A stretch of 64,000 nt of DNA from Planctomycetota bacterium (GTDB lineage Bacteria; Planctomycetota; UBA11346): positions 3,808 through 67,807 of the forward strand of contig JBIILZ010000004.1 in the NCBI GenBank assembly GCA_044338255.1. The letters run 5' to 3'. A program made the position numbers and the translations under genes. Positions within the stretch are counted from its first letter, which is position 1. Each line of letters starts with the position of its first letter. Under the pieces are notes generated by a model. The model worked only from the letters and a program-made list of their open reading frames with translations, made no database searches and had not been told where the DNA came from. This document shows, piece by piece, positions 8,783-64,000 of this stretch.

Positions 8783-9880
8783 ATGAAGATTGGCTCTTCT
8801 CTCACGTCCGTTGCCCAGCGCGTCGATCATGTCCGCCGATCAGCGCGCGACTTCCTCGCCAAGCCGGCACAGGTGCGCATCTCCGCTGTCAGCGACAAAC
8901 CGCCCGCACTCGTGCTCGATGACGGCACGGGGGCTCTCTCCTTTGGCATCAGCGATCTCGTCCACGACCAACTCGCAGACTACGCGGGGATTCCGACCCC
9001 GTACTATCGCCGCATGCTGGCGGAAACGCCGGATTTGCTGGCATCCAATGCCAACACTTGGCTACAGAAGGGTGATGGCCGCCGCCTCGTTCGCACCGCG
9101 CTCAACGATCAGGAGCAGCCCATCGCCAGGGCCTTCCTGAGCGATCGGTACCGCCCCCTCGATCATTTTCAGTTGATGGAGGCCGTGCTTCCGCTCCTGC
9201 ACGAACAGGGCATTCGCATCGAATCCTGCGAGCTGACCGAGAAGAGGTTGTACCTCAAGGCGGTCAGCGAGCGGATCACCGGTGAGGTGAAGGTCGGCGA
9301 AACGGTGATGGCAGGGATCATCGTCTCGAATTCGGAGGTCGGCTTCGGTGCCCTCGGAATCCAGCCGCTGGTCTACACCCTGCGGTGCACGAATGGGCTG
9401 GTGGTCGAAGATTCCAGCCTCCGCCAGCACCATGTCGGCCGTCGCCATGGCGACCCTGGTGATAGCGACATCCGTCATCTCCTCAGCGACGAGACCCGCT
9501 CTGCCGACGACCGTGCCTTTTTCCTCAAGGTCCGCGACGTGGCAAAGGCGGCCCTCGACGAAGGCGCATTCCGTCGGCAGGTGGAGCGCCTAAAGATCGC
9601 GGCCGGCACCCCGATCAATTCCAACAACATCGAACGTGTGGTGGAGGTCACCGCCAAGCGCTTCGGCCTGACTGATGAGGAAGGTGCCGGCGTCCTGGCC
9701 CATCTGATTCGGGGCGGAGACTTGTCCCATTGGGGTCTCTGTTCGGCCGTCACGCGATTTAGCCAGGACGTGGGCAGCTACGACCGAGCTACCGAGTTGG
9801 AGCGGATCGGTGGCAAGTTGGTCGAGTTGCCCAAAAGCGATTGGCAGCGGCTGTCGGCTGCCACGCCGTCGGTGAATTGA
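8783..9880 (+). CDS. DUF932/DUF945-family protein (phage/plasmid-like)
   Basis: 365 aa. FLSDRYRPLDHFQLMEAVLPLL, GIIVSNSEVGFGAL and the position immediately upstream of radC are typical of DUF932 genes on integrative elements. Confidence 0.65.
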   Translation: MKIGSSLTSVAQRVDHVRRSARDFLAKPAQVRISAVSDKPPALVLDDGTGALSFGISDLVHDQLADYAGIPTPYYRRMLAETPDLLASNANTWLQKGDGRRLVRTALNDQEQPIARAFLSDRYRPLDHFQLMEAVLPLLHEQGIRIESCELTEKRLYLKAVSERITGEVKVGETVMAGIIVSNSEVGFGALGIQPLVYTLRCTNGLVVEDSSLRQHHVGRRHGDPGDSDIRHLLSDETRSADDRAFFLKVRDVAKAALDEGAFRRQVERLKIAAGTPINSNNIERVVEVTAKRFGLTDEEGAGVLAHLIRGGDLSHWGLCSAVTRFSQDVGSYDRATELERIGGKLVELPKSDWQRLSAATPSVN

Positions 9881-13467: not shown

Positions 13468-13765
13468 GCAGTCATTTGTCGTCATCCATGAACACGACGG
13501 CTGCCAGCCTGGTTCATGGAGCAGTCCGGCTTTTCCTCGCTGACGGTAATCGGACGGCTCCGTCAGCCAGCTGATAATTATTATGGAAATTGCCGGGAGC
13601 ATCAGCACCCCCGGGTCTCCAACTCGTTACTTAATTAATTAAGCAGCGAGAGCGTACTCGACATGATCGTCGGCACGTGTGTTTTTGCGGGTTATTTACG
13701 TGGCCTCCCGCACCACGACGCGCGGCAAAGCGCCGGTGCATGCCCGTCGAAACCTGGTCGCCCCC
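13403..13765 (-). ncRNA. ssrA: tmRNA (SsrA)
   Basis: On the minus strand the 5' end is GGGGGCGACCAGGTTTCGACGGG. The 3' end is GGGTTCGATTCCCTCCGCCTCCACCA, with the G3:U70 pair in the acceptor stem. The tag ORF GCC GAC GAT CAT GTC GAG TAC GCT CTC GCT GCT TAA encodes ADDHVEYALAA. It is followed by TAATTAATTAA, which gives stops in all three frames. Confidence 0.9.
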
Positions 13766-16120: not shown

Positions 16121-16966
16121 TCAGGCGATGTGCTGCATCAGGTAGCCGATCAAGCGCGCGATTTCGGCCTTCATGTCCTGGCGGGTGACGATGAGATCGA
16201 GCTGGCCGTGCTTGAGCAGGAATTCCGAGGTCTGGAAGCCCTCTGGCAGTTCCTGCTTGATGGTCTCCTGGATGACGCGCGCGCCGGTGAAGCCGATGAG
16301 GGCCTTGGGCTCGGCGATGATCACGTCGCCGAGGCTGGCGAAGCTGGCCATGACCCCGGCCATGGTCGGATTGGTCAGGATGCTGAAGTAGGGCAGGCGC
16401 TTTTCCGCATGGCGGGCGAGCGCGGCGCTGGTCTTGGTCATCTGCATCAGGGAGATCGCGCCTTCCTGCATGCGCGCTCCGCCCGAGGCGTTGACGATGA
16501 TCGCCGGCATGCGCGCGGCGGTCGATTTCTCGATCATGCGCGTGAGCTTTTCGCCGACCACCGAACCCATCGAGCCGCCGTTGAAGTCGAAGTCCATGAC
16601 GCCGAGGCCAACAGCCTGGCCGCTGATCTTGCCGGTGCCGGTGAGCACGGCGTCCTTCATGCCGGTCTTGGCCTGCTGCTGGGCGATGCGCTCGGGATAG
16701 GGTTTGCCGTCGATGAAGCCGAGGGGATCGCCGCTGACCAGGTCGGCGTCCCATTCGCTCCAGGTGCCTTCATCGATCAGGCTGGCGATGCGTCGGCTGG
16801 CGGGCATGCGGAAGTGATGATTGCACTCGGGGCAGGTATCCATGCGCTCTTCGACCAGCCGCTTGAACACGGTCTTCACGCAGGAGGGGCATTTGATCCA
16901 CAGGCCATCGGGGATCTTTTTGGGATCTTTGGTGGGAGTGGAGCGGCGAAGGCGATCGAGAACCAT
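16121..16966 (-). CDS. accD: Acetyl-CoA carboxylase carboxyltransferase beta subunit
   Basis: MVLDRLRRSTPTKDPKKIPDGLWIKCPSC...CPECNHH is the N-terminal zinc ribbon. It is followed by GSMGSVVGEK and the carboxyltransferase core. Start set at ATG 16966-16964 because this N-terminus matches the usual AccD layout. Confidence 0.9.
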   Translation of the reverse strand: MVLDRLRRSTPTKDPKKIPDGLWIKCPSCVKTVFKRLVEERMDTCPECNHHFRMPASRRIASLIDEGTWSEWDADLVSGDPLGFIDGKPYPERIAQQQAKTGMKDAVLTGTGKISGQAVGLGVMDFDFNGGSMGSVVGEKLTRMIEKSTAARMPAIIVNASGGARMQEGAISLMQMTKTSAALARHAEKRLPYFSILTNPTMAGVMASFASLGDVIIAEPKALIGFTGARVIQETIKQELPEGFQTSEFLLKHGQLDLIVTRQDMKAEIARLIGYLMQHIA

Positions 16967-16999
16967 GGGTGGGGAAGGCTGGGGCTTTCGCGGCTTTTT

Positions 17000-17063
17000 C
17001 CAGTGGGAGTTCCAGTGGGAGTTCCAGTGGGAGTTCCAGTGGGAATTCCAGTGGGAGTTCCAG
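17000..17063. repeat. 12-bp tandem repeat CCAGTGGGAGTT, 5.3 copies
   Basis: Five head-to-tail copies, the fourth being the variant CCAGTGGGAATT, plus a partial CCAG. It lies 34 bp upstream of the accD start, in the accD/nusA divergent intergenic region. Confidence 0.95.
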
Positions 17064-17251
17064 ATAAACATTCCCACGCCAGAAGCTGGCCGTCGCGACG
17101 AACCCACCAATTCAAAACTTGCAACGCCCGCAGTGTCCCTAACATCCGCCCTTCACTCTTCCGGTTTTCCGAAAGCGTGGGCCGGGCGGCTCACGCTTTT
17201 TTCGTCCAGTGTACTTTTTTTGACCGCCCCAGAAGGACTCCAGGCCATATC

Positions 17252-18568
17252 ATGATTAACGGCTCCATGCTCCTGCAGCGTATTGACCAGCTCGCCCGTG
17301 AACGCGGCATGGACAAGGACCTGATCCTCGACCAGCTCGAGAAGGCCTTGATCCAGGCGGCGCAAAAGCGCTTCAATGCCGAAGGTGAGTTCACTCTTAC
17401 CATCGATCGCGAATCGGGCGAGATCCGCGCCTTCGAAGACGACAAGCCAGTCAATCTCGAAGAGCTCGGGCGCATCGTCGCCAACGTCGCCAAGCAGGTC
17501 CTGGTGCAGGCGCTCAAGGAAACCGAGCGCGATATGGTCTACGAGGAGCTCGCTCCCCGTGCGCGCACCATCGTCAATGGCACGATCGCCCGCGAAGAGC
17601 GTGGCATGATCCTCGTGACCATGGGCCGCGCCGAGGCTATTTTGCCCAAAGAAGAGCAGATTCCCGGCGAAATCTACCGCGTCGGGGCCGTCATCCGGGC
17701 CTTCGTGCTGCGCGTCGAGAAGAAGGGCCAGCGCGTGCGCATCGTCCTCACCCGGACCCACGCCGACTTCGTCAAGGAGCTCTTCAAGCAAGAGATCCCC
17801 GAGGTCGCCGACGGCCTGATCGAGATCAAGGGCATCGTGCGCGAGCCCGGCCGCCGCACCAAGATCGCGGTTGCCTCCAGCGACGCGCGCATCGATCCGG
17901 TGGGGTCGTGCGTTGGCGTACGCGGCAGCCGTATCACCAAGGTCACCGATGAGCTCGGTGGCGAAAAGATCGACATCATCCCCTGGGCCGAGGATCCCGC
18001 GCAGTTCATCGAGAACTCGCTCAAGCCGGCGCGCATCCTGCGCATCAGCTACGATCATTTCCGTGACCGCGCCCGGGTCGTGGTCGGTCAGGACCAGCTG
18101 CCGTTGGCCATCGGCAAGGCCGGTCAGAACGTCCGCCTGTCGGCGCGTCTGACGCGCTACAAGATCGACGTGATGTCCGAAGAGAACGCCGCCAAGGCCC
18201 GCCAGGCCGGTTCGGAAGAGCTCCAGAAGCTCATCGACGCCGGCGTCATGGACGACTTCCTGCGCGAAACCTTCATCGACAACCACCTCGACGGACTAGC
18301 GGTACTAGCCGCTCAAGAGCCGGCGCATCTCATTGAGGTGCTTGAAGAAGTGAAGTTGGATCCGGAGCGCGCCGCGAAGCTCATCTCGGCCGCCAATACC
18401 CTGCTCAGCGATGAGCAGCGGGTCCAGCGCGACGAGATCATCGCCCGTCGTCTCGAATCCGAGCGGCGTGCCCAAGAGGAAGAGGCCCGCGCCATGGCCG
18501 ATGCCGAGCAGCAGGCCATTTCCGAAGTCCAGGCCCTCACCGGCGAGGCCTTTGGTCGCAACGCTTGA
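17252..18568 (+). CDS. nusA: Transcription termination/antitermination factor NusA
   Basis: MINGSMLLQRIDQLARERGMDKDLILDQLEKAL is the N-terminal domain. An S1 domain (GEIYRVGAVIRAFV) and KH domains (GSCVGVRGSRI, AIGKAGQNVRL) follow. The 812-aa track ORF is an upstream artefact. Confidence 0.95.
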   Translation: MINGSMLLQRIDQLARERGMDKDLILDQLEKALIQAAQKRFNAEGEFTLTIDRESGEIRAFEDDKPVNLEELGRIVANVAKQVLVQALKETERDMVYEELAPRARTIVNGTIAREERGMILVTMGRAEAILPKEEQIPGEIYRVGAVIRAFVLRVEKKGQRVRIVLTRTHADFVKELFKQEIPEVADGLIEIKGIVREPGRRTKIAVASSDARIDPVGSCVGVRGSRITKVTDELGGEKIDIIPWAEDPAQFIENSLKPARILRISYDHFRDRARVVVGQDQLPLAIGKAGQNVRLSARLTRYKIDVMSEENAAKARQAGSEELQKLIDAGVMDDFLRETFIDNHLDGLAVLAAQEPAHLIEVLEEVKLDPERAAKLISAANTLLSDEQRVQRDEIIARRLESERRAQEEEARAMADAEQQAISEVQALTGEAFGRNA

Positions 18569-51682: not shown

Positions 51683-51756
51683 TGGGGCATCGTCTAACGG
51701 TAGGACTGCAGATTCTGGCTCTGCCTATCGGGGTTCGAATCCCTGTGCCCCAACCA
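51683..51756 (+). tRNA. tRNA-Gln (anticodon CUG), CCA encoded
   Basis: Hand-folded. The acceptor is TGGGGCA/TGCCCCA with a U1-A72 pair typical of tRNA-Gln. The D arm is GTCT-AACGGTA-GGAC. The anticodon stem is GCAGA/TCTGC with loop TTCTGGC. The T arm is CGGGG-TTCGAAT-CCCTG. Discriminator A and CCA follow. Confidence 0.9.
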
Positions 51757-53248
51757 ACCAGGACGGCTGTACAAAACAGCCGTTTTGACCTGTGATGGCC
51801 CTCCCCTGCAAGGGGGAGGGCCACGCTTTTAGGGTCATATGCCTATCAAACCCGCAATGAACTTCTGCTAACAAGGCGCTTATCACGGCCTGTTGCTCGT
51901 CATTTGGCCGGCCCAACAGGCGATCAAGCCCTGTGCGAAGCCGTTCGGCCTGAATTTCCAGATCGTCATCCTTGATGCGTGCATGGGCTAGAGCGCCTTC
52001 GATGCGATCGAGGTTTTTCTGGGCTACAGCCTGCTCTTCGCTCAGTCTTTCGACTTCGCCCCGAGCGGCGGTCGCTAGGGCGTCTCCTTTGGCGAGGAGA
52101 TCGATGATGCGTGCGATTCGTGCCTGGCATCCATCGCGCAGTCGGGCGTGCTTGGCCCGCTCCTCGATGAGCAGTTCCCCGCGAAGGGCGTTTGCCGCTC
52201 GTTCACGCGCCCAAATCTTCATGAGTGGTCCGTCGGTGCCCGCGAGAGAGGAAAGTGCCTGTAATGCGGCTCTTTCCCATGCTACGGCAGGAAGGTCTCT
52301 GGCCGTGCATCCCGCATGTGCGATTTTTCTGGAGCAACGGTAGTAGGGATACGCCTGCCCATGTCGCCCGCATGATGTTACTCCGACTAAGCGGCCACCG
52401 CATAGGGCACAACGCCCAACACTTCCCAAAACCCAGATACGATTCGTGCCGCGGCCGATCTTCTTCCGAGCTCCCTCACCAAAGCCGGCACGATCATTTG
52501 GACGCCTGTCGACCAGCGCTTTGGCTGCGCGTACAAATGTATCTAAATCGATGAGCTGTCCGATATATCGACGTTGGCGGATCAATCTTGCTACTGCTTG
52601 CCTGCTCCATGGACGATTGCGTGGAGATTGCACACCATTGCTGCGCAGCCAGTCGCTCAGTTCGGCCAAAGATTCTCCTTCGAGGCAGCGATGCCAGACC
52701 TGGGCAACGATCGGTCCGTGTTCAGGATGAACGATGAGCTTTTTGTTGCCTGGTGGCCCAATGACAACGAGCCCTGCGGGGACCGGACCACCAACGAAGG
52801 CTCCCTTCGACTTAAGCAATCGCATAGACGCTCCGACCCGTTCGCTGATCGCTTCGCGCTCATATTGGCCAAAAGTTCCTAAAATCCCTAAGAACATCCG
52901 GCCGACCGCGGATTCCGTATCCAAGTTTTCGGTTACCGAAACGAGTTCAATATTGTTTTGGTTACACAATTTCACCAGCGAACACAGGTCGCTCACTGAG
53001 CGACTCAAGCGGTCGAGCTTCCAGACGCAGATACCCTTCACGCTTCCTGTTTTGACCAGCTCCAGGACTCGCTTCGCTCCTGGCCTCATGAGATCCTTAG
53101 CGCTGAATCCCGCGTCTTCTACGTGGATGGGATCGTTCACGCCTTTGCTGAGCAGAAGCGCCCTGCATCGCTCGAGTTGAGAGGACAAGCTAACGCCCTC
53201 GCGAGCTTGATCCTCGGTGGACACTCTCGTGTAGATGACCCAGTGCAT
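51725..53248 (-). CDS. Large serine recombinase (island 2 integrase)
   Basis: MHWVIYTRVSTEDQ contains the Ser nucleophile. WKLDRLSRS, a recombinase domain, a zinc ribbon (CALCGGRLVG...YYRCSRKIAHAGC) and a coiled-coil follow. The last ~10 codons plus the stop (51725-51756, 32 nt) are antisense to the tRNA-Gln T-arm and acceptor. Confidence 0.9.
   Translation of the reverse strand: MHWVIYTRVSTEDQAREGVSLSSQLERCRALLLSKGVNDPIHVEDAGFSAKDLMRPGAKRVLELVKTGSVKGICVWKLDRLSRSVSDLCSLVKLCNQNNIELVSVTENLDTESAVGRMFLGILGTFGQYEREAISERVGASMRLLKSKGAFVGGPVPAGLVVIGPPGNKKLIVHPEHGPIVAQVWHRCLEGESLAELSDWLRSNGVQSPRNRPWSRQAVARLIRQRRYIGQLIDLDTFVRAAKALVDRRPNDRAGFGEGARKKIGRGTNRIWVLGSVGRCALCGGRLVGVTSCGRHGQAYPYYRCSRKIAHAGCTARDLPAVAWERAALQALSSLAGTDGPLMKIWARERAANALRGELLIEERAKHARLRDGCQARIARIIDLLAKGDALATAARGEVERLSEEQAVAQKNLDRIEGALAHARIKDDDLEIQAERLRTGLDRLLGRPNDEQQAVISALLAEVHCGFDRHMTLKAWPSPLQGRAITGQNGCFVQPSWLVGAQGFEPR
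51763..51787 (+). terminator. Hairpin plus T-run downstream of tRNA-Gln
   Basis: acggctg tacaaaa cagccgt is followed by ttt. It lies inside the C-terminal coding region of the minus-strand recombinase. Confidence 0.5.
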
Positions 53249-53509: not shown

Positions 53510-55186
53510 GTGCTATGGCTATTTCCAGAGCCGAGTGCAATCGATTGGGCGCGATTCAGGCAGCCAACGATGCTCGACTCGAAATCCATCCTTCAGAATG
53601 CGATCATCCAGACGCGCAACGCAGACGCGCCAAGGCCCTCGAGATCCTTTGGGAACTCGGGGCCATGGCTGCACCCGCAGCTTATCCGGCACCCGAAGAA
53701 TCCACAGGGGCAGATAGCCGTGCGCGACCGTCCATTTGAATCGCCAAACCCACTGGCTGGTCATCGTGTAGCCAAGGCGGTGAGCTGGTTTACCAGCGAA
53801 GAACGAGTTCCCGCCATCGCACCGCGATGGCTCCTCGAACAACCGCTTTGGCATGAGCCCGAACGGGCAATCAAACACGCGCATTTCCGGCGTGATTTCG
53901 TGGCCACCGACCCGCATAATGGCTTTTCGCGGCGCATGATCCTCGAAACCAACAACGACATCGCTGGCCAAACTGGAAGGCACTCTCCGGGCGGCTTGCT
54001 GCGCTGGCTCGACATGGATATCGCGGTCGCCCTCAGTCGGGCTTGGACGGAAAACCGCTCAAAGAATCTAGAATGCTTCCAGAAGGATCTGTTGACCTGG
54101 ATGGGCTACCATTCATCGAATAGGCACCATTCTCCTTATCGAGAAATACGCGGGTCTATTGATCGTCTACGTCGTACCGCGATCGCGCTGTATGCCTATG
54201 GTGATGACCGCTCGCGCGTACCGTGGTTCACGATTCTGTCCGAAGGCAATCTGTGCCAGGAACAGCTCTCGGGTCGTCGTGTCATCTTGCAAGCGCAGCT
54301 CAGCGATGCCTGGACTAAGGTGCTCTCCAGTTTGGAGGATTGGACCATTTTCGACATAGAGTGCTATGCCCATCTTGCCCGCACTAACCTTCGGTTGGGT
54401 CTTTCCCGAGCAATGTACCTCTATTTTGCAGCAAACCGCGACTGGAAAACGATGCAGTTTTCAGTCAGCGTCACGGCGCTCCACGAGCAATTCGGAGATA
54501 GATCGGGAATTGATGGGCCATTGATTTATCGGAACGCCTTCAATCAGAAATCCCGCCTTCGCCGGGCCATCGATCATTTGGCCGGTTCCGGCGTTATCCG
54601 CTTCAGCGATGTAACCCGCAATCACCTACTCAACGGAGAATTTATCAGGCCGAGCAGCCTCATCACGTTTGCCACAATCGAGCAGGAGCGCGCTCATCGT
54701 ATCGGTACTCAAGAAGAATTACCTTTCTTGACGGGCCCGCTGCTGGCGCTCAGTGCGCAATCAGTCGAGGCGCAAGTAGCGATACCGAAGAACCCGCCGC
54801 GTACGGTTCCAAAGATTTTTCATACGTTCACCGAGCTATTGCCCAGCCTGCGCCCTGCATTGCTACAGCGGGCATGCGACAACGGATGGACTCAGGATCA
54901 ATTGAGCAATTTTCTCGGATATCTGTTTTGGAAGGAGGCGAACGGTGGGGTCCATAGCCTCATCGGGCTCGCAGTTCGATTGCTGGATGAGGGAATTACG
55001 GATCCTCAGCATCGTGAACTGCGCTGGTGCTGGCATGGGATCAGTAGCGAGATCGGTCTTTCGACTCGGGAGGAATGGATCGCCTGGACACGAAAAGAGG
55101 TGGTCCGCAGACGCGCTCTGAAGGGAAGGTTCACAGAGCAAAGAAAAGTTACCACATCTGTCCCAGAGATGGAGACCCAGCCATGA
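53510..55186 (+). CDS. Putative plasmid-type replication initiator (RepA/TrfA-like); function tentative
   Basis: 558 aa from GTG 53510, with an alternative ATG at 53570. GGLLRWLDMDIAVALSRAW and the later YLYFAANRDWK...VSVTALHEQFG resemble winged-helix Rep initiators. It lies directly upstream of parA, with an ATGA overlap. Confidence 0.4.
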   Translation: MLWLFPEPSAIDWARFRQPTMLDSKSILQNAIIQTRNADAPRPSRSFGNSGPWLHPQLIRHPKNPQGQIAVRDRPFESPNPLAGHRVAKAVSWFTSEERVPAIAPRWLLEQPLWHEPERAIKHAHFRRDFVATDPHNGFSRRMILETNNDIAGQTGRHSPGGLLRWLDMDIAVALSRAWTENRSKNLECFQKDLLTWMGYHSSNRHHSPYREIRGSIDRLRRTAIALYAYGDDRSRVPWFTILSEGNLCQEQLSGRRVILQAQLSDAWTKVLSSLEDWTIFDIECYAHLARTNLRLGLSRAMYLYFAANRDWKTMQFSVSVTALHEQFGDRSGIDGPLIYRNAFNQKSRLRRAIDHLAGSGVIRFSDVTRNHLLNGEFIRPSSLITFATIEQERAHRIGTQEELPFLTGPLLALSAQSVEAQVAIPKNPPRTVPKIFHTFTELLPSLRPALLQRACDNGWTQDQLSNFLGYLFWKEANGGVHSLIGLAVRLLDEGITDPQHRELRWCWHGISSEIGLSTREEWIAWTRKEVVRRRALKGRFTEQRKVTTSVPEMETQP

Positions 55187-55905
55187 CACTAGTCCGCATA
55201 GCCGTCGCCGCACGCAAGGGCGGAGTCGGAAAGACGACGCTGGCGACCGGCCTGGCATCAGCGTTCGCTGCCGTTGGCATCGAGACGTTGCTGTTCGACC
55301 TTGACCCCCAGAGCAATGCCGCCTTCGCGTTGGGCGTTGATCCGACTGCACAGGGGACTGCCGAATATCTCACGGGTAAAGCCGTCGAGCCGACAGGGGC
55401 TGCACCTCATTTGCATGTCTTTCCTGGCGGACCGGCTTTGACCAGTTACCTCATCGAGAGCCTCGACGTCGAAGAGCTCCATGACCGAATTCGAGGTCGA
55501 AATGAATCAGTGATCATCTTTGATTGCCCTCCCGGGGAGGAGCACCTCGAACGTTTAGCGCTCGTGGCAGCTGATGTTGCGTTGGTAACCGTAGATGCCC
55601 ATCCATTCGCCGTGAGCGGTGCAGCGCGGGTGCTGGACCTCATCGCGAGCCGAAGGCTCAAGGGAAGGCAATGCCCACACAGGCTTGCCCTGATCGCATC
55701 ACGGATAGATGCCCGCCGCAGCTTCGATCGGGAGCTTGTTCAGCAATTGGCTCAGGCTTTCCCCAACATTCCGATTTTCAGCGTTCGCCAGGATGCCGCG
55801 CTTGCTGCCGCATCTGCCGACCGCATTCCCATCGCCAAAGCGGCACCTGAATGCCGTGGCTACCACGACCTCATCTCCATAAAGGAATGGATACATGACC
55901 ACTGA
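55183..55905 (+). CDS. parA: ParA-family partition ATPase
   Basis: The deviant Walker A is AARKGGVGKTTLA. DLDPQSN and IFDCPPG are also present. Confidence 0.85.
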   Translation: MTLVRIAVAARKGGVGKTTLATGLASAFAAVGIETLLFDLDPQSNAAFALGVDPTAQGTAEYLTGKAVEPTGAAPHLHVFPGGPALTSYLIESLDVEELHDRIRGRNESVIIFDCPPGEEHLERLALVAADVALVTVDAHPFAVSGAARVLDLIASRRLKGRQCPHRLALIASRIDARRSFDRELVQQLAQAFPNIPIFSVRQDAALAAASADRIPIAKAAPECRGYHDLISIKEWIHDH

Positions 55906-56698
55906 TCGTAATCGCGTCGTCTCTCAGGATGCCCTGGATGCCGGGCGTGCTTTATCACGCCAAGAAAGTGCCATGAACGCCGATGGGGCGGAAATGCAGG
56001 GACGTCGGACAATCTCGTTGGAGGGAATCCAAGACCGCCATGCGGAGACCCGCAAGCTCACGCCAAGCCATGTTGAGCATTTGAGCGAAAGCATAGCTGC
56101 GTTGGGCCTGATCGAGCCGATCGTTGTCGACCGTTCGGGCCGCTTGTTGGCAGGTGGGCATAGGCTGCAGGCGATCAAGCAGCTCAAGGCTGAATCGCCC
56201 ACCGTTTTTGTGGAGCGATTTCCTAATGGCATGATCCCGGTCCGTATCATGGATCTGAATGCGGATACGGATCATCAGCAGGCATTGGCTATCGAGGTCG
56301 CAGAGAACGCGCAGCGCCGAAACTACACTTCCCGGGAGGTAAAAAAGCTAGCCAAGCGCTTAGTGAAAGCTGGCTATAAAGACACTGCTGGCCGCCCGAA
56401 AGATGGAGAGAAATCACTCGCGCCGGCCCTTGCGGTGGTGATTGGTTGCAGCTTGAGAACGGTTCGGAGACACCTCAGCTCGACCGATAATCAAATAGTG
56501 ACAGATGTCACCATTACTTCAGATCCATCGCATTTTCTGGCAGTTCAACAGCTTTTAATCGCGACCAATAAAGGTCTCGATAAGCTGAACTCCTGCGCTG
56601 AGGTTCCGGCTGATCTCATGGCGATTGCGCGGCAGTTTTCGGATTGCCTGAAAAGTGAGATTCAGCGTCTTGGGGCTGTAAGGCGAGAATTGGCCTGA
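55895..56698 (+). CDS. parB: ParB-like nuclease-domain / partition protein
   Basis: LTPSHVEHLSESIAALGLIEPIVVDRSGRLLAGGHRLQAIKQL is the ParB N-terminal motif with GxHR. An HTH-like region follows. It overlaps the parA 3' end. Confidence 0.8.
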   Translation: MTTDRNRVVSQDALDAGRALSRQESAMNADGAEMQGRRTISLEGIQDRHAETRKLTPSHVEHLSESIAALGLIEPIVVDRSGRLLAGGHRLQAIKQLKAESPTVFVERFPNGMIPVRIMDLNADTDHQQALAIEVAENAQRRNYTSREVKKLAKRLVKAGYKDTAGRPKDGEKSLAPALAVVIGCSLRTVRRHLSSTDNQIVTDVTITSDPSHFLAVQQLLIATNKGLDKLNSCAEVPADLMAIARQFSDCLKSEIQRLGAVRRELA

Positions 56699-56760
56699 GT
56701 CCTTTTGAAGGTCTAATGGCAAAAAGACTACCGCATACGAAGACAGCGATGCAAGATATA

Positions 56761-56795
56761 GGTTATACATTAAAACGGTGTTTTACTGTATAACC
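56761..56795. repeat. AT-rich 16-bp-stem hairpin (1 mismatch, 3-nt loop)
   Basis: ggttatacattaaaac ggt gttttactgtataacc. It lies between parB and the mobC-like gene. Confidence 0.85.
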
Positions 56796-56908
56796 GCGGT
56801 CCCACTCGCTGCCGTCTCTCCCTTTGGTCGAGAACGGCGCTTGGGGCTTTATGATATGTCCGTGCCACTGCGCTTTGCTTGTGATCACACTTTCCAAATG
56901 GCATACTC

Positions 56909-57316
56909 ATGACTATCCCACGCGTTCAGATTACCGTTTATTTAACGGCCGAAGGCCAAGCGTTACTACGCGAACGCATGAGGACGTCTGGCCTTAATGC
57001 GTCTCAATATTTCGGTTCCCGGTTAAAAAATGCCGATGTGCGGGTCACCCGGCACACATCCGCTCCGAGCAATATTTCCTCGGACGCCATTGGACTGGCG
57101 AGGAAGATGTCCGAGCACATGAATGAAATTGCACGTCGGATCAATTCGGCAGACCGCAATGAGCCATTCCCGATGGCCCGTGAGGAGTTTGATCTCATAG
57201 ACCGCGCTGCGACTCTGTTGGTGGCCAAGCTTTTGCATATCAAAAATGTGGGGAAAGTTAGCCGGAAACTGGGCATAACCAAATGGATGAGGGGCTCCAA
57301 CAGCCATAACGATTAA
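56909..57316 (+). CDS. MobC-like relaxosome accessory protein
   Basis: RVQITVYLTAEGQALLRERMRTSGLNASQYFGSRL is RHH-like. The later MSEHMNEIARRINS follows the MobC pattern (..NlNQiAr.lN). Confidence 0.5.
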   Translation: MTIPRVQITVYLTAEGQALLRERMRTSGLNASQYFGSRLKNADVRVTRHTSAPSNISSDAIGLARKMSEHMNEIARRINSADRNEPFPMAREEFDLIDRAATLLVAKLLHIKNVGKVSRKLGITKWMRGSNSHND

Positions 57317-57417
57317 CCCATGGGGATAGGTTCGGCTAAGCGCTCAATGATTCTTAATTTGGATAAGTTGACGAAATGATCAGCATAAATTCCCCACGTG
57401 GACCTGCAGGGCGCCTC

Positions 57418-60400
57418 TCAGGAGCACGCCTGCTTCACCGCATGCAACAACACCTGCTTCGCCTTCACCTGACCGTAGAACCAATCAGTCGACCAGATGC
57501 GGTGCAGGTTCCAATCCCGTTCTTTGAGGATTTCTTCCCGTAGATGGTCACGATCACGCGCCGCACGGCTGCTGTGGTAGGTCGCTCCATCGCACTCGAT
57601 GCCGAGCGCGAAGCGGCCAGAGTCACGTGGGTGGCGGACGCCCAGATCGACAAAGTAGCCGCACACGCCGACCTGCGGCTCGATCGTGTATCCCTCGGCA
57701 CGTAGGAACGCTGCCACGGCCTCCTCGAACGGCGAATCCATCGACTGGCCCGTACGAGAGCCAAGGTCTGGCACCGCCACACGTCGATCTGTCTCGCAAT
57801 AGCGAAGAAATCGGTGAAAATCGACCACGCCTTCATTCTTTCCCTCGCCAATAAGAATTTGTTCGCTGCGCATCGAAGAAAAAACGACCATCTGCTGCTT
57901 CGCACGCGTGATGGCTACATTGAAACGGCGCTTTCCTGCAATCCCGTTGATCGATTTGAATCGCTGATGCACCTTGTCCGTGCCTGGGTACTCTGGCCCG
58001 TACGTGCATGCGATCACGATGATGTCCCGTTGATCACCTTGGAAATTTTCGAGGTTGCGAACGATGAGCGGCTCAACGCCGCGGCTTTCCTCCTCCATTA
58101 GGATCTTGGCCACGATGGCATCACCCTGGCGAGCTTGATCGAGCAGATTGCTGATCGCCTCCTGATGACGCGCGTTCATCGTCAATACGCCGATGGTGGC
58201 GCGCTTCTTAGGCGGAATTCCAGCATAGGAACGAAGCGTTTTTACCAAGTACCCGACTACCGCACCTGCTTCGGGGGTATTGACCTGATTACGGAAAAAG
58301 CCGTCTGGGACGTAGTGGTGCTTGATCCCTCGGTCATCACGACGGTCAACGGCTGACGGAAAAATGATGAGTCGGTGGTTGTAGGAGAATGCGTTGGCAG
58401 GAGCTATGAGCTCTTGGTGCTGGCTGCGGTAGTGCCAGATCAAACCCGACTCGGGAAGCGATGCCTTGGCGAGTTCCAGGATGCTCTCGGCGGCCGCAGC
58501 CTCGGCTTCTTCGTCCTCCTCTTCCACGTCATTGGTCGTGGTTGACTGGAAGAAGTTGCTCGGTGGCATCTGTGCTGGATCACCGACGATGACGACTTCA
58601 CGACCACGAGCGATAGCCCCGAATGCATCTTCGGGAGTGAGCTGTGAGGCTTCGTCCATTACCACCAAATCGAATTCAATGGCCCCAGGGGACAGATATT
58701 GAGCGACCGCGAGCGGGGTCATCAGCCAGCACGGACACAGGTCCTGCATCGCCTTACCTGCCCTGGTGACAAGCTTACGAATTGGGAAATGCTTCCGCTG
58801 TTTGGAGCGCTCCTTGTCGAGCAATGCCCGCTGCGTCATATCGGCAGTAACACGACTATTTCGTCCTGCTTCCACATGACGACTCGCCACCGAAGCGATC
58901 ACACGCGCCTGATTCTTTTCCAGCATCGAGAGGTCATGGGCGGCGAATTCTTTGCGCTCGGCTTGATGGCGGCTCCCCGTGAAATTAGCCAACACAGGAT
59001 TCGCCTGGATAACCATTTCGGCTTGACGGTACAAGATGAGCGAGGCGAACACCGCTAGCATATCCTCGGCTGAGGGACGCGTAATGCGCAAGGTGTTGAG
59101 GAGCTGGGCCAGACCGTCATCTGCAAGCTGACGCTCCAACCGCAGCAGGTCGGCGAACGGCAGCAGAGATGCCTCAGCGTCGCTGAGCTGTGCCAAAGCT
59201 GTTCGCCGCTGAACAACCGTTTGAGAAAATAGGCATGTTCCACACGGGCCTTCGTACGTCTGCTTGCCAAATCGTTCGGCGAGCGCGACATGCTCTTCGG
59301 TCGCTTTGAACAGCGACTCGGCAATGCCAGAAAGTGCTTTAAGGTGATCGAGGGCAGCGCGAGTCCCCAATCCCAGCAACCACGCACATAGCTTCGACGG
59401 CAGCTCACGTGCCTGCGCCACGAGAAGCCAATGATCGCGCATCATCGTTGGCGTGAGGTCGGTGGTGCGGAATCCGACTCGATCATCGTAGGTCGCCATC
59501 TCGCGGGCCACCGCAGCCGCTTGGGTGTGGGACTCCAAGCTACGCGTCAGGTCGGACAGCGTCAGGACAGGTGTTGAGGCGGCCGAAGACAGCAGATCGA
59601 GCGATGAACGCCATTCCGCAAGCGATCGAGGCAGGTGATCGTGCCAGGTCGCAACGGGACTATCCGTCGTCGCGTCGGCAATATTGAGCATACCCACCGT
59701 GCGAGCGGTCTCGATGGTATCCTTTACCTGGTTCGCGCTGAAAGCGAGACGCTTCCACCACGTGGCGCGATGTTCCGCATCCGCCGCAACGATCCACTGC
59801 ACAAGCGGAACGGAGACGTCGTTTGCGCGAACCGCTCGCGTCCACTCGGTGCTGACGGTGACTGGATCCAGGTCACTGGAACCGAAACCCTGACCCAGTT
59901 CCTTCGACCAGGGTGCGATGGTCGTGGTGATTGCTCGCACCTGCTGCGCGCTGCGCAAAACGTCTGCAACCGTGCCGAGTGTCGTTTCACGTTGCGTGTG
60001 CAGGAGGGCGATGGTGGTGCGCATGCCGACCATTGTGGTGCGGATCGCTTCCAAGGTGGCGACGACGTCGCTGGCCTGACGAGCATCCTCAATTCCGATT
60101 CTAGCTGCTACCCGAGCATGTGCAGCTTCGATTTCGGCAACGGCATCACGGCATGCCCGCAGGGTCATGCGTGCATCGCCAACCACCAAATCGAGGCACG
60201 ATTGCAGTGTGAATCCAGCTGCCATGAGATTGGAGGTCCACTGGCGAGCCTCTTCAATAGATGATACACGCACTTGGTTCCAGGTGCGGCCAGCAAGTAC
60301 GACCGCGAATGGCTTTAGACCACCAGCGGTAAATTGGCTGTCAGTGTACGCTCCGATTACTTCCAGCGCCTGATTCGGTGTTACACCGGCTTGTGCACCC

Positions 60401-63400
60401 AGGCCATCGAGTGCAGTGACGATGCGACCAAGCCGAGACGCTGCGGCGGACATCGCCGACGCCTGCGATTCAAGCAACGTCAAGGATTCGCAGTTCCCCG
60501 TCGAGGATTGCCACGCCTTCCAGCTGACCAAAGCAGCGATGTGCGTGGAAGTTGACGGCAGTCCAGCAACCTGTGTGGTTGCGAACCACCGTAGAATGCT
60601 GCCTGCTTCCTCCCTCGGCAACGTGCGAACCCAGGCGAAGATCTGCTGTGCTTGCGCCCAGTTGGAATCGATGCCTTTCCATTGAGCGCCCAGCGCCATC
60701 GCACCGATGCCATCCTGATCGAGTGCGGCAACGGCGCGCTTCCAAGCCACCAATCGATCCAGCAGGGTGATGAGTTCCTGAGTGGAAGGAAGGGCAGCGG
60801 TACAGAATCGCATGAGCCGCGCACGCGCTGCACGCCACGACGAGCTGAACCAACGGAAGATTCCCGTCTGCGTTGCGAATGTCCTCCGCAGGGCGGTAAT
60901 AGCGTCTGCGTCTGGTGCCTCAGAGAGAAGGAAGTGGGATGCAAGACGATCGCGCTCCTGCACGAGCTGGCGCCCAGTCTCAGCGATCACCTCGATCGTG
61001 GCTTGAATCGGAAGCTCTGCCCAGCGCCCCAACTGCGTCGGCATCACAGGACTCGGGAACGTGCGGAGGATTTCCACCGTGGCGAAGGCGCCTGTTACGT
61101 GGTCGTGGTTGGTCGCTTCGGGGAGGCCCCATGCTGCCAGCAGCTGGTCCGCGACTTGAACAGCTCCACGTCGACCCTGTTCGATGCGAGCCATCACCTC
61201 CTGGTCGCGACGGAGGTCATCGAGTGGACGATCAGCCCATGCCGGTACCGTCGAAAGACCCCCACGGATCGTCGCGACTGCCTCGTCCTGTTCGTCGAGA
61301 TTGCCCGCTAGACGTCCACGGATTTGTGCGAATTTGACTTCTATTGCCTGGAAGGCTGCGAGCTGAGAGGCCAGCTCTGGCACCTTTTTTAGCGGAAGCA
61401 CGCCCTGGCAGACAGCAGCCACCGTTGGCTGATCGATCTCGGTGAGCGACAACGCGCGTGACACGAACGGCGTACGGGCGAGCGCCAAAAGAGCCCCCAC
61501 TGACGGCGAAGCTAAGCGGGGAAGAATAGGGGATGTGCGTGCAGAGATCGCATGCCAGGCGGCAACTACATCGGCAACAGAAACAGCCAATTCTTCCAGT
61601 GCAGAGAGTTGCACGGTATGCGCGGCGCGTGGCAGTGAAGCTAAGCGTTCCGCCAACGAATCCTGAGCGGCACCATCGACATTTCCCAGGCCGATACCGC
61701 TCGTGCTAATGGCCAACTGGTGGTCCCGTAGGCTGCTCAGCGAGGACACCAGCTCAGCAATACGAGTGAAGGCGTCGCCGCCCGCCAAGAGGTAGGCGAC
61801 GACACGCTGGTTGAGCTGTCTTGGGATCGCAGGGACCGCGTCGTGTGGGAACTCAGTAAGAGCGTGCAGGGTTCCCCACGTGAGCCCACCAAGCGCCTGC
61901 ACGCCTTCGGGCAGTTCCCCTGCGATTGCACGGTGGGTTTCCAGTGCGAGGTGGACCGAGTTGATGTGGTCGAGAGCCGATCCCGCTTCGGCCAGGCGGG
62001 TGCCAGGCACGAGGCCCCCCGTTAGCTGGCGCACGGCGGGACCGAGTCGTTCAACGATTTCTGCCGGCTTTTCGTTTCGCAGCGGCAGTGACTGGGTCGC
62101 GCTGCTCACATGACTCGCGTACTGTTTCACCAGCGCTTCGAGCGTGGCTACCTGTTTCACGTCGCCGCCCGATGCCGCGGCGATCTTCGATACGATCCAT
62201 GGCGATGGACGTTCGATGAAGGGCACGGCGCGAATTGCGAGCAGACTCTTTTTTACTGACGCCAGCGACTGTTCGCTGAGACTGGGATCGATAAGTTCCA
62301 GCGCCGTTTTCAGGTCGGAAACCTTTTCCAAACAGACGCGCAGGCTTCGCATGACCTGGGGCACTTGCGACGCCATCAGGTCGATCGGGGACCACCCAAT
62401 CCAGGTGTCGTTGGTGTTATCCAGCAGATGGCGCCACTCACGCAATGCATGGTCAGCTTGCGCTTTCCACGCATCGACGGCGATCTGGGTAGGTGGGAGA
62501 CTGAGCTGAATACTTTCAGCTGAGAACTCCGACCCCAAGATCTGCTGAGCCCGTTCTCTCGTGGCATTTGCCGACCTGATGACGGTCGCGTTGACACCGT
62601 AGACACCGATGCCACTGAGTCCGTTGGCGACCGTATTCAGCCGCTTCGCCGCGGCGGTCAGATGGGAGTTGCTGGCCGCCGAGCGGGGAGCCTTGGTGCG
62701 TGCGTCCTCAGCCTTTTGAAAATGTTGATGGACCTCGACTGGCCGCGACTTGTCGGTGTAGAGCGGAAGACAGAAATCGCTCACACCAACCTTGGTCAAA
62801 TTGCTGAACACCACGTTGAGAGCGGCCATCTTCTGAGCGACGAATAGGACTCGTTTCCCTTCGTGCAGAGCGGTGGCTATCAGGTTGGTAATTGTCTGCG
62901 ATTTGCCTGTGCCTGGTGGACCGATGATCGTGATCGACGTGTTGTTGCGAGCGGCAAGCAGCGCGGCGTACTGGCTCGAATCGGCATGGAGCAGAATCGG
63001 CAGATCTTCCTGCGCTTGGTGCTCGGCGACCTCCTCGGCAGAAGGGATAGGGGATTGCTCATTCGGGTCGTAATACGCGCGACGTTCAGCGAGGGCTGCG
63101 ATGACGGGATGTTCGAAGAGAGCCGACTGGTCTGGCCAATTGGCTGGATCCAGATCCAGCCACATGCGATACCTCGAAAAATTAAAGAAACCCAGGCTGA
63201 TCGTCGGATGTATCTTGCAGCCGAGCTTGCGGCTCACGGCTTGCGTGATTGCACCGATGTAATCAGACCAGGTTTCGTACTTTTCTGAGTCGTAGTCGGG
63301 GAGGGTTAGCCTTTGATCGGACTTGAATTTTTGAATCAGGCACGGGTTCCCCTGCGCCTCGTCGGCATCCATCTCGATGGTGAATTTTAAGTCACCGCCC

Positions 63401-64000
63401 CCAGGGGGTGTGAGCCGCTTCAATTTCACGTGCACCAGGATCAGCGGGCTGCACACGCGAGTCCGCTTTGGTCCTTCGGGTTCTTGCTGCACGGGGACTT
63501 TGATCCTCGACGGTCCTTCCTCGATTTCCCAGTCCAAAAATCCGATTGCCAGGAAGAGACAGGAGTCCCCCGTTGATGATTCGAGCGTCTCCTGCTTGCG
63601 ATAGATCGTCAGCAGCTTGGCGGTGCTGGCTTTCAGCGGTAGCGGGCTGATTAGACCACCCTCGGCGATATACGTCTGCAAGCGCTTTGCGATGTCGTCG
63701 GTCGACCGTGATTTGCTCGAACCGCTCTGTCTCGTGCGAATGCTGAGCGCATGACCAGCGATCTCGGTTTCCACGTCCCCAGATCGAAGGCTGCCGATGG
63801 CCTCGGCCTGCTCCTGTTCCGTGAGGATGAGGATGTCACGTGTGCGTTCCTCAGTGACAAGCTGGTCCCAAGCCGCGCCAGCGTTGCCCATAAGCACGAG
63901 GGAATCGGCAGTCGTCTTACCTTCGTCTGGGTTCCCAGGGCCGAAGTGGACCAGACGGTTCCTACGCGTGAGATCGAGGAGCTTCTGCCGTGCGGCAGCG
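57418..64000 (-). CDS. Giant DUF4011-like / SF1 (Upf1-like) helicase / DUF559-Vsr-like endonuclease fusion protein; N-terminus outside the window
   Basis: The track ORF of 2,159 aa begins at an internal GTG. The same frame stays open from 63898 to 64000 (...AAARQKLLDLTRRNRLVHFGPGNPDEGKTTADSL). Walker A is IIGPPGTGKSQT. Motif II is LVVMDEASQ. Further motifs are VIVGDPAQMPP, YRSQH, FQGDQRDIIV and NVAITRAKQ. The C-terminal PD-(D/E)XK module is GYFVDLG...LGIECDGATYHSS...RIWSTDW. Confidence 0.85.
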   Translation of the reverse strand, partial: AAARQKLLDLTRRNRLVHFGPGNPDEGKTTADSLVLMGNAGAAWDQLVTEERTRDILILTEQEQAEAIGSLRSGDVETEIAGHALSIRTRQSGSSKSRSTDDIAKRLQTYIAEGGLISPLPLKASTAKLLTIYRKQETLESSTGDSCLFLAIGFLDWEIEEGPSRIKVPVQQEPEGPKRTRVCSPLILVHVKLKRLTPPGGGDLKFTIEMDADEAQGNPCLIQKFKSDQRLTLPDYDSEKYETWSDYIGAITQAVSRKLGCKIHPTISLGFFNFSRYRMWLDLDPANWPDQSALFEHPVIAALAERRAYYDPNEQSPIPSAEEVAEHQAQEDLPILLHADSSQYAALLAARNNTSITIIGPPGTGKSQTITNLIATALHEGKRVLFVAQKMAALNVVFSNLTKVGVSDFCLPLYTDKSRPVEVHQHFQKAEDARTKAPRSAASNSHLTAAAKRLNTVANGLSGIGVYGVNATVIRSANATRERAQQILGSEFSAESIQLSLPPTQIAVDAWKAQADHALREWRHLLDNTNDTWIGWSPIDLMASQVPQVMRSLRVCLEKVSDLKTALELIDPSLSEQSLASVKKSLLAIRAVPFIERPSPWIVSKIAAASGGDVKQVATLEALVKQYASHVSSATQSLPLRNEKPAEIVERLGPAVRQLTGGLVPGTRLAEAGSALDHINSVHLALETHRAIAGELPEGVQALGGLTWGTLHALTEFPHDAVPAIPRQLNQRVVAYLLAGGDAFTRIAELVSSLSSLRDHQLAISTSGIGLGNVDGAAQDSLAERLASLPRAAHTVQLSALEELAVSVADVVAAWHAISARTSPILPRLASPSVGALLALARTPFVSRALSLTEIDQPTVAAVCQGVLPLKKVPELASQLAAFQAIEVKFAQIRGRLAGNLDEQDEAVATIRGGLSTVPAWADRPLDDLRRDQEVMARIEQGRRGAVQVADQLLAAWGLPEATNHDHVTGAFATVEILRTFPSPVMPTQLGRWAELPIQATIEVIAETGRQLVQERDRLASHFLLSEAPDADAITALRRTFATQTGIFRWFSSSWRAARARLMRFCTAALPSTQELITLLDRLVAWKRAVAALDQDGIGAMALGAQWKGIDSNWAQAQQIFAWVRTLPREEAGSILRWFATTQVAGLPSTSTHIAALVSWKAWQSSTGNCESLTLLESQASAMSAAASRLGRIVTALDGLGAQAGVTPNQALEVIGAYTDSQFTAGGLKPFAVVLAGRTWNQVRVSSIEEARQWTSNLMAAGFTLQSCLDLVVGDARMTLRACRDAVAEIEAAHARVAARIGIEDARQASDVVATLEAIRTTMVGMRTTIALLHTQRETTLGTVADVLRSAQQVRAITTTIAPWSKELGQGFGSSDLDPVTVSTEWTRAVRANDVSVPLVQWIVAADAEHRATWWKRLAFSANQVKDTIETARTVGMLNIADATTDSPVATWHDHLPRSLAEWRSSLDLLSSAASTPVLTLSDLTRSLESHTQAAAVAREMATYDDRVGFRTTDLTPTMMRDHWLLVAQARELPSKLCAWLLGLGTRAALDHLKALSGIAESLFKATEEHVALAERFGKQTYEGPCGTCLFSQTVVQRRTALAQLSDAEASLLPFADLLRLERQLADDGLAQLLNTLRITRPSAEDMLAVFASLILYRQAEMVIQANPVLANFTGSRHQAERKEFAAHDLSMLEKNQARVIASVASRHVEAGRNSRVTADMTQRALLDKERSKQRKHFPIRKLVTRAGKAMQDLCPCWLMTPLAVAQYLSPGAIEFDLVVMDEASQLTPEDAFGAIARGREVVIVGDPAQMPPSNFFQSTTTNDVEEEDEEAEAAAAESILELAKASLPESGLIWHYRSQHQELIAPANAFSYNHRLIIFPSAVDRRDDRGIKHHYVPDGFFRNQVNTPEAGAVVGYLVKTLRSYAGIPPKKRATIGVLTMNARHQEAISNLLDQARQGDAIVAKILMEEESRGVEPLIVRNLENFQGDQRDIIVIACTYGPEYPGTDKVHQRFKSINGIAGKRRFNVAITRAKQQMVVFSSMRSEQILIGEGKNEGVVDFHRFLRYCETDRRVAVPDLGSRTGQSMDSPFEEAVAAFLRAEGYTIEPQVGVCGYFVDLGVRHPRDSGRFALGIECDGATYHSSRAARDRDHLREEILKERDWNLHRIWSTDWFYGQVKAKQVLLHAVKQACS

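Follow-up and report, generated by a model that had tools for sequence, protein, structure and literature searches.

Hhe is among the 33 anti-phage systems that Gao et al. assembled as a panel. Preprints portray it as a one-gene system whose product has both helicase and nuclease domains, name Bas63 g40 and the T7 class II genes as its phage triggers, and report phage genes that counter it. A related class of proteins is represented by the NCBIfam model ProA and the PADLOC model PDC-S37; no source paper for either was found in the literature searched. A sequence search of the Protein Data Bank (PDB) returned no Hhe-family structure and only weak matches to Upf1-like cores. The gene considered here lies at the right edge of a 64,000-nucleotide stretch of DNA from a Planctomycetota bacterium (assembly GCA_044338255.1, contig JBIILZ010000004.1, positions 3,808 to 67,807), which is referred to as the window and to which all coordinates refer. 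It occupies 57418..64000 on the minus strand and encodes a helicase-nuclease fusion in which the first RecA domain of the helicase (RecA1) is interrupted after motif Ia by an all-alpha stretch of approximately 1,350 residues. Judged by its sequence, the protein belongs to the Hhe/ProA family of helicase-nuclease defence proteins as a long-arm variant and falls outside both curated equivalogs, and the interruption is built from two families of repeats, four units of each, that meet at a conserved apex.

On the minus strand, no stop codon interrupts the reading frame between the one at 57418-57420 and the window edge. A first-pass annotation of the same DNA had noted that the frame stays open from 63898 to the edge and that the gene must be larger than its list of open reading frames (ORFs) suggested, and this was confirmed by the identification of an identical full-length protein of 2,270 residues (P0001), a second copy of which is encoded on an independent Logan contig (L001). 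Given the length of this protein, only the first 77 codons fall outside the window; the true start codon is located about 230 nt past base 64000, and the 2,193 C-terminal residues (78-2270, from the ORF list and translation) are encoded inside. The order of the Pfam domains is DUF4011, Upf1-like superfamily 1B (SF1B) helicase and Vsr-fold MTES_1575 nuclease, all in one polypeptide. The DUF4011 match (PF13195; residues 83-301, 63328..63984, minus strand; E 1.7e-14, 54.5 bits, cut-off 22.2) includes LLDLTRRNRLVHF, the stretch in which a DUF4011-like signature had first been suspected. It is contained in an N-terminal alpha/beta domain (approximately residues 78-400) with long beta-hairpins in an AlphaFold2 model of residues 78-600 (mean predicted local distance difference test score, pLDDT, 84.4; predicted template modelling score, pTM, 0.71). 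Comparison of the modelled N-terminal domain with the PDB using Foldseek gave no fold match (best E 0.08).

The helicase is split into two parts. The N-terminal half of RecA1 (residues 410-499, 62734..63003, minus strand; AAA_19, AAA_30 and AAA_11 matches) carries Walker A and motif Ia and gives a weak PDB sequence match to IGHMBP2, and the C-terminal half of RecA1 together with RecA2 (residues 1856-2125, 57856..58665, minus strand; AAA_11 and AAA_12 matches) carries motif II followed by motifs III, V and VI and gives PDB sequence matches to Sen1. Walker A (GPPGTGKS) is located at exactly the 62899-62922 assigned to it in the first-pass annotation; Walker B, or motif II (VVMDEASQ), is present as described there, at 58642-58665, 4 nt away from the position originally noted (58646-58669). 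The starts of Walker A and Walker B are separated by 1,419 residues, close to the approximately 1,415 codons first estimated. Motifs I, Ia, II, III, V and VI are all intact (GPPGTGKS, VLFVAQK, DEASQ, VGDPAQMPP, QGDQRD and TRAK, respectively), and ATP-dependent unwinding in the 5'->3' direction is predicted from family membership only.

The nuclease, a PD-(D/E)XK-type enzyme of the Vsr fold (REase_MTES_1575, PF18741; residues 2168-2264, 57439..57729, minus strand), is matched at E 1.1e-31 and 109.2 bits, against a gathering cut-off of 38.2, over positions 1-95 of the 96 in the profile. Together with the AAA_12 match, this bears out the helicase fused to a C-terminal Vsr-type nuclease that had been proposed from the letters of the DNA. 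The protein ends six residues after the nuclease, without a DUF3320 winged helix-turn-helix (wHTH) tail; the MTES_1575 family has been defined as a Vsr-fold restriction endonuclease and DUF3320 as two wHTH domains (PMC3710099). Among 27 homologues, G437-S444 of Walker A, D1859, E1860, G1883, D1884, Q2064-D2069, T2108 and R2109 of the remaining helicase, and D2195, E2212, D2214 and H2219 of the nuclease are invariant. Because the helicase motifs and nuclease residues are so conserved, both activities are probably intact.

The protein has 7,309 homologues at E <= 1e-10 and shows the features of the DUF4011 helicase-nuclease superfamily, namely DUF4011, a Walker A/B pair split around an apex module, and MTES_1575. 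The first-pass annotation had not recognized the architecture as that of a described defence system; it matches Hhe, for which NCBIfam and PADLOC models exist alongside the panel of Gao et al., as well as ProA/PDC-S37. In PADLOC, the best match is PDC-S37 (976 bits, E 1e-293), followed by Hhe (644 bits). The NCBIfam model for 'anti-phage protein ProA' (NF058533) gives 925.7 bits against a cut-off of 1500, and that for 'DUF4011 domain-containing anti-phage protein Hhe' (NF042953) gives 914.8 bits in three stretches against a cut-off of 2000. On the Hhe model, proteins named Hhe by the Prokaryotic Genome Annotation Pipeline (PGAP) reach 2384-2572 bits, the lower value being that of a Pseudomonas protein (locus L008) and the higher that of P0104. 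A Labrys protein of 1,588 residues (locus L081) just passes the ProA cut-off with 1510 bits and matches PDC-S37 from end to end with 1799 bits, which indicates that PDC-S37 and ProA describe what is essentially a single class. The best PDC-S37 stretch of the present protein covers profile positions 719-1341 only, of approximately 1,550. Long-arm members are missed by annotation pipelines because their scores fall below the equivalog cut-offs.

Hhe (HheA; NF042953, PADLOC PDLC02194) resembles the present protein in domain order, in the division of its helicase by a helical insert, in the conserved apex and in the return segment that follows the repeats, and is likewise a single-gene system. The alignment to P0104 spans the N-terminal domain, the apex and the core, with 35-44% identity in the N-terminal domain and helicase-nuclease core by BLASTP, and 44% from residue 1731 on. 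Hhe differs in having two repeats of each family and approximately 930 residues between the Walker motifs, compared with four of each and 1,419 in the present protein, and in carrying about 140 residues beyond the nuclease that the present protein does not have. Proteins of the ProA/PDC-S37 class belong to the same superfamily and have the same core domains and apex, but contain only the apex pair (one unit of each family) and approximately 622 residues between the Walker motifs. Plasmid-borne relatives with genes of a size similar to those of ProA/PDC-S37 (approximately 4 kb) are usually annotated by PGAP as DUF3320-containing. Particular to the present protein are its unusual arm of four plus four units, double the length of that in Hhe, and the lack of a C-terminal extension after the nuclease.

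The insert is rich in Ala, Leu and Trp (15.3%, 11.9% and 2.3%, compared with 9.7%, 8.6% and 1.0% in the remainder of the protein), and the first-pass annotation had suggested that it may consist of repeated helical modules. This holds: the insert comprises a short pre-repeat segment, four A-type repeats, the apex, four B-type repeats and a return segment, and the Trp-containing helices quoted in that annotation recur at roughly similar offsets in units R5, R7 and R8. The pre-repeat segment (residues 500-621, 62368..62733), at the base of the outgoing arm, forms two long helices in the AlphaFold2 model, is kept in the class of homologues with about 1,682 residues between the Walker motifs, and has an hhalign probability of at most 1% to any repeat unit. 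The four A-type repeats (R1 622-747, R2 748-876, R3 877-1004 and R4 1005-1151; 60778..62367) and the four B-type repeats (R5 1152-1286, R6 1287-1419, R7 1420-1559 and R8 1560-1699; 59134..60777) are all alpha-helical and were delineated by profile self-alignment. The apex motif, FRWFSSSWRAARARL (residues 1125-1139, 60814..60858), is located at the end of R4 and is the predicted turning point of the arm. The post-repeat segment (residues 1700-1855, 58666..59133), which leads back to RecA1, is conserved family-wide and is found with an hhalign probability of 99-99.9% in every length class. All of these features are on the minus strand.

The repeat structure is evident from profile-profile comparison of the insert with itself, which gives an alignment at a shift of approximately 126 residues (E 2.4e-23 over 853 columns) and another at approximately 255 residues (E 3e-10). 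Reversed profiles served as the control (best E 4.8e-5), as block shuffling is invalid here because intact 20-column blocks re-match themselves. Chaining of the shift places the unit boundaries at residues 622, 748, 877, 1005, 1152, 1287, 1420 and 1560, with the end near residue 1700 and unit lengths of approximately 126-147 residues. A HMMER search with a single repeat unit matched only that unit; the repeats are too diverged for a profile-to-sequence search, and profile-profile comparison was needed for this reason. When units were compared individually with hhalign, R1 and R2 matched at 82% probability and R2 and R3 at 96%, and in the second half R6~R7, R6~R8, R7~R8 and R5~R6 matched at 95%, 95%, 96% and 42%, respectively, similar units aligning in register. 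No comparison of any of R1-R4 with any of R5-R8 exceeded 4%, and none of the flanking segments, used as controls, exceeded 1% with any unit. The insert thus contains two repeat families, A (R1-R4) and B (R5-R8).

The AlphaFold2 model of residues 540-1739 (mean pLDDT 82.9, pTM 0.40) is entirely alpha-helical, with 55 helices, none of them longer than 32 residues, and each repeat boundary derived from the sequence lies within two residues of the start of a long helix. The junction of the A and B halves, FRWFSSSWRAARARL with its surroundings, is the most conserved region of the insert, and a hidden Markov model (HMM) of this apex region detects 120 of the 120 best homologues, the present protein included. 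Exhaustive comparison of the insert with 1.84 billion representative proteins returned 64 matches at E <= 1e-3 and eight at E <= 1e-10, and the distant matches were restricted to residues 1079-1209. This restriction indicates that the arms evolve quickly and the tip does not. Profiles of alignment entropy and of pLDDT along the insert are mirror-symmetric, maximally so about residues 1144-1150 (r = 0.72 and 0.73, compared with a median of approximately 0.07 at other centres), and the patches of lowest conservation and model confidence fall in R3 and R6, which would be partners if the arm folded back. Foldseek comparison of the insert model with the PDB and BFVD returned the arms of MukB, JetC, condensin, Smc5/6, PrgA, SbcC and Rad50 as top matches, all weak (template modelling score, TM, at most 0.12); these are generic long-arm proteins, and the comparison yielded no domain assignment for the insert.

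The gap between Walker A and Walker B is large across the family and comes in discrete lengths. Among the 120 best homologues the distances group at approximately 818, 905-940, 1054, 1420-1463 and 1682-1713 residues, and a further class of approximately 622 residues occurs among proteins from a scan of genome collections. Since the distance is at least 816 residues in all 120 and large in the 622-residue class as well, the gap that the first-pass annotation had singled out is not peculiar to the present gene. The present protein belongs to the 1420-1463 class, which accounts for 42 of the 120 clusters and in which the insert is fully occupied across members. Mapping of the units shows that the ProA-like class (approximately 622 residues) contains the pre-repeat segment, R4, R5 and the post-repeat segment (1A+1B), that the Hhe-like class (approximately 930 residues) contains an R1-like unit, R4, R5 and R8 (2A+2B), and that the class of the present protein contains R1-R4 and R5-R8 (4A+4B). 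The class of approximately 1,682 residues has R1-R3, an extra stretch of about 90 residues, R4, R5, an extra R5-like unit and R6-R8, which is about one more unit per half. The R4-R5 apex is central in every class mapped: the distances from Walker A to the apex and from the apex to Walker B are approximately 280 and 345 residues in ProA-like proteins, 420 and 505 in Hhe-like proteins, 690 and 770 in the present protein, and 780 and 910 in the longest class. Relative to the Hhe-like class, the 1420-1463 class has gained one block of 255 residues in the A half and one of 235 residues in the B half.

Two groups of known proteins help to place this arrangement. The Upf1-like SF1B helicases (IGHMBP2, Sen1 and Upf1) have a homologous core, as indicated by AAA_11 and AAA_12 and by the PDB sequence matches 4b3f and 5mzn. 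Their accessory subdomains (the 1B stalk or barrel, and 1C) are likewise inserted into RecA1 between motifs Ia and II. These insertions measure tens to about 200 residues, in contrast to approximately 1,350 in the present protein, and the Upf1-like proteins have no DUF4011, Vsr-fold nuclease or repeat array. In the SMC, Rad50, SbcC, MukB and JetC proteins, a long helical segment leaves and rejoins one ATPase between Walker A and Walker B, and arm length varies between members, as it does in the Hhe/ProA family. These proteins are not homologous to the present one and offer an analogy only, as their head is of the ABC type and not an SF1 RecA pair. Moreover, the present protein has helices of at most 32 residues in units of approximately 130 residues, whereas the SMC/Rad50 type has continuous coiled coils; it is not a member of the SMC/Rad50 ABC ATPases, which are defined by an ABC head with a signature motif and a continuous antiparallel coiled coil with a hinge or zinc hook.

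The balanced growth of the two halves, the mirror symmetry about residue 1147, the weak fold matches to SMC/Rad50 arms, and the need for both ends of the insert to rejoin one RecA1 domain suggest that the insert is probably an arm that folds back on itself, made of A:B pairs and ending in a conserved tip, an arrangement that would explain the length classes of the family. The halves would run out and back in the manner of an SMC or Rad50 arm, with A units packed against B units, and the arm would lengthen in evolution only through units added to both halves, from 1+1 in ProA-like proteins through 2+2 in Hhe-like proteins to 4+4 in the present protein. Some evidence pulls in the other direction. 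The 818 and 1054 classes show changes of one unit that are unbalanced between the halves and adjoin the apex; the folded-back geometry is not seen directly, given a pTM of 0.40 and Foldseek TM scores of at most 0.12; and a closed ring of units would yield the same balance and the same mirror symmetry.

A broader proposal can be put forward only tentatively: that the insert represents a modular arm of a new type inside an SF1 RecA1 domain, a folded-back heterotypic A:B array whose length is set in whole pairs (1+1, 2+2, 4+4 and approximately 5+5), with a tip that may serve in dimerization or target sensing and a length that may determine the reach on DNA or the span surveyed. If true, a logic resembling that of SMC and Rad50 would operate on an unrelated motor, and the present protein would be among the longest natural versions. 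Hhe-family proteins are widespread, and their previously unexplained centre proves to be a two-family repeat array around a conserved apex. ProA/PDC-S37, Hhe and the long form differ mainly in the number of A:B unit pairs, which provides a concrete structural framework of arm length, apex contacts and paired units, for which nature has supplied the length variants.

Individual homologues show further arrangements of the insert. The lone member of the 1054 class (P0057, 1,829 residues) carries the apex junction twice in tandem, the duplicated stretch consisting of the end of R4 and the beginning of R5, at insert positions of approximately 365-686; it would be a natural double-tip variant. The proteins encoded at L077 (Streptomyces sp. 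NPDC001480; 10301-16303) and L043 (9980-15421) break the rule of balanced arms, with 930 and 570 residues, respectively, from Walker A to the apex and only about 342-356 residues from the apex to Walker B. Either an unrelated domain is present in the outgoing half of these proteins or the apex has been misplaced by the HMM.

The genomic surroundings of the family bear on its function. Six loci encoding long-class homologues were inspected (P0015, P0017, P0018, P0038, P0002 and P0003), and known defence genes are located beside four of them. The P0015 gene lies directly upstream of a type I restriction-modification (R-M) system that includes two GmrSD genes, and a WYL regulator is encoded close by; that of P0017 is followed by a SNF2 helicase and a MmeI-like methyltransferase; that of P0018 lies between NACHT, Mrr, AbiJ and ImmA-like genes on one side and an nSTAND NTPase and IS66 elements on the other; and that of P0038 is near AbiEi/AbiEii and a TrwC relaxase. 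The gene for P0002, which is 82% identical to the present protein, adjoins ParA and ParB-like genes and an Xre-MbcA antitoxin. In PLSDB, 525 plasmids, many of them from clinical Klebsiella, encode relatives, none of which is a long-arm form, and the scan of genome collections returned more than 590 relatives, with shorter-arm forms only among the matches listed.

No conserved partner gene was found across the loci examined, and the genes upstream differ between them. Approximately 75 nt upstream of the start codon are common to the Logan contig L001 (260-337) and the P0002 locus L084 (5735-5812), and the two diverge fully further upstream. This stretch, in which no obvious Shine-Dalgarno sequence was seen, is probably the promoter or 5' leader belonging to the cassette itself. 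Since there is no conserved partner and only these 75 nt are shared with the P0002 locus, the data fit a cassette that consists of this one gene and approximately 75 nt in front of it and moves as a unit. In a separate comparison, two loci that encode identical P0015 proteins (L087, 16744-19125, and L088, 16723-19098) were found to differ directly downstream: where one carries hsdM, two unannotated ORFs occupy the opposite strand in the other, and hsdS, the two GmrSD genes and hsdR are unchanged. The difference could reflect inversion or replacement within the R-M locus, or gene calling.

From its family and surroundings, a role of the protein in defence is likely. Several points weigh against this assignment. 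The protein scores below the equivalog cut-offs of both Hhe and ProA, and no paper settling the structure or mechanism of Hhe was found in the literature searched. The gene for P0003 (65% identical) is situated among housekeeping genes (smpB, purA-like and dapF-like). Furthermore, every P. aeruginosa isolate has a DUF4011 gene beside the defence hotspot cDHS1 as part of its conserved core genome, and because of this member the family is not uniformly accessory.

The last two points would also be expected of a housekeeping or element-maintenance enzyme of DNA repair or replication, acting on stalled forks or on intermediates of the element and having no immune function, and the neighbours of the helicase-nuclease gene in the window are genes of replication and partition. 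Upf1-like helicases and Vsr-fold nucleases also have roles in repair. This explanation is nevertheless unlikely, as the distribution of the family is patchy and extends to the 525 plasmids, known defence genes flank four of the six long-class loci, and two branches of the family are curated as anti-phage proteins. Additionally, the rapid divergence of the arm, for which only eight of 1.84 billion representatives match at E <= 1e-10, is unusual for a housekeeping enzyme.

A weapon in competition between elements, one that destroys incoming plasmids, integrative and conjugative elements or other rivals rather than phages, appears to be a similarly improbable function. In such a Wadjet-like scheme, the arm would sense the size or topology of DNA. 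The position of the gene on an integrative element with Rep- and ParAB-like genes would suit this role, as would the ParA, ParB-like and Xre-MbcA antitoxin genes beside the close homologue P0002, the TrwC relaxase near P0038, and the presence of MukB and the Wadjet protein JetC among the closest fold matches of the arm, weak as these are. However, such fold matches, with TM scores of at most 0.09, are generic for long helical arms, the characterized relative Hhe was scored against phages, and no JetA, JetB or JetD partners for sensing topology are found among the genes of the window. An assembly chimera or a decaying gene with an unrelated or junk insert was considered because the contig is of metagenome type and the window edge cuts the N-terminus; no point in its favour was found, and it can be rejected. 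The identical 2,270-residue protein is also present in a separate Logan assembly, the protein length and full insert occupancy are retained in homologues that are 82% and 65% identical and in about 38 others at 30-33%, all catalytic motifs are intact, and the insert is modelled with a pLDDT of 82.9.

The reading preferred here is that the protein is, with somewhat better than even confidence, a single-protein immune effector of the Hhe/ProA family, carried as cargo on an element integrated at a tRNA-Gln gene in a Planctomycetota chromosome. By analogy with Hhe, such an effector would patrol DNA as an ATP-driven 5'->3' translocase with its nuclease kept inactive. A replication signal from a phage or other foreign DNA would then be sensed through the DUF4011 domain, the arm with its conserved tip, or both. 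Finally, the nuclease would be released to cut DNA, and the invader would be blocked or the infection aborted.

The element in question is the second of two low-G+C islands in the window. Its left boundary is a tRNA-Gln(CTG) gene (51683..51756, plus strand; ARAGORN), and the G+C content falls from approximately 0.66 to approximately 0.56 at 52 kb, directly to the right of this gene. A large serine recombinase (51725..53248, minus strand; Pfam Resolvase, Recombinase and Zn_ribbon_recom), the 3' end of whose ORF overlaps the 3' end of the tRNA, is followed on the plus strand by a RepA-like gene (53510-55186), a ParA gene (55075-55905), a ParB-like gene (55895-56698) and a NikA-like gene (56909-57316). 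The first-pass annotation had placed the helicase-nuclease on an integrated plasmid-like element, and the site agrees with this: the recombinase and ParA are clear Pfam matches, and the RepA-, ParB- and NikA-like assignments are weak matches below the cut-off. These plasmid-like maintenance genes (53510..57316) and the helicase-nuclease gene are convergent. A terminator-like hairpin stands directly after the stop codon of the latter (57392..57411, minus strand), in a consensus scan that found one site against a shuffle expectation of 1.1, which is chance level. No other island 2 gene within the window gave a convincing match to a defence model. A search of the window for a direct repeat matching the tRNA 3' end found none, and the right end of the island falls outside the window; the description of the helicase-nuclease as the only large cargo on this island consequently stands for the part within the window and does not extend to the remainder.

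The two islands resemble one another. Islands 1 and 2 are each bounded, at 11842-13765 and 51683-53248 respectively, by a large serine recombinase ORF that enters the 3' end of an RNA gene, which for island 1 is a transfer-messenger RNA (tmRNA) gene (13403-13765, minus strand) and for island 2 the tRNA-Gln gene. The recombinases are 37% identical and end in ...GFEP and ...GIEP, and it appears that, in the overlap of each ORF with its RNA gene, the tail is translated from the T-arm in reverse complement. The islands seem to be a pair of related integrative elements with tRNA-like 3' ends as their targets. The G+C-rich core of the window (approximately 0.63-0.68) encodes NusA, initiation factor IF-2, a sigma-54 response regulator and dihydroorotate dehydrogenase. 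This IF-2 shares 74-76% identity with its counterparts in Planctomycetes/Planctomycetota metagenome-assembled genomes, which makes a planctomycete the most likely host. In the longest ORF containing nusA (16130-18568, plus strand), the NusA N-terminal domain begins only at residue 381; translation probably begins at a start codon well beyond the first in-frame one, or else the protein has an unusual N-terminal extension. Island 1, which covers 1-13.4 kb to the left of the tmRNA gene with a G+C content of 0.53-0.58, encodes a DUF932 protein (8783-9880), and the tmRNA encodes the tag peptide ADDHVEYALAA.

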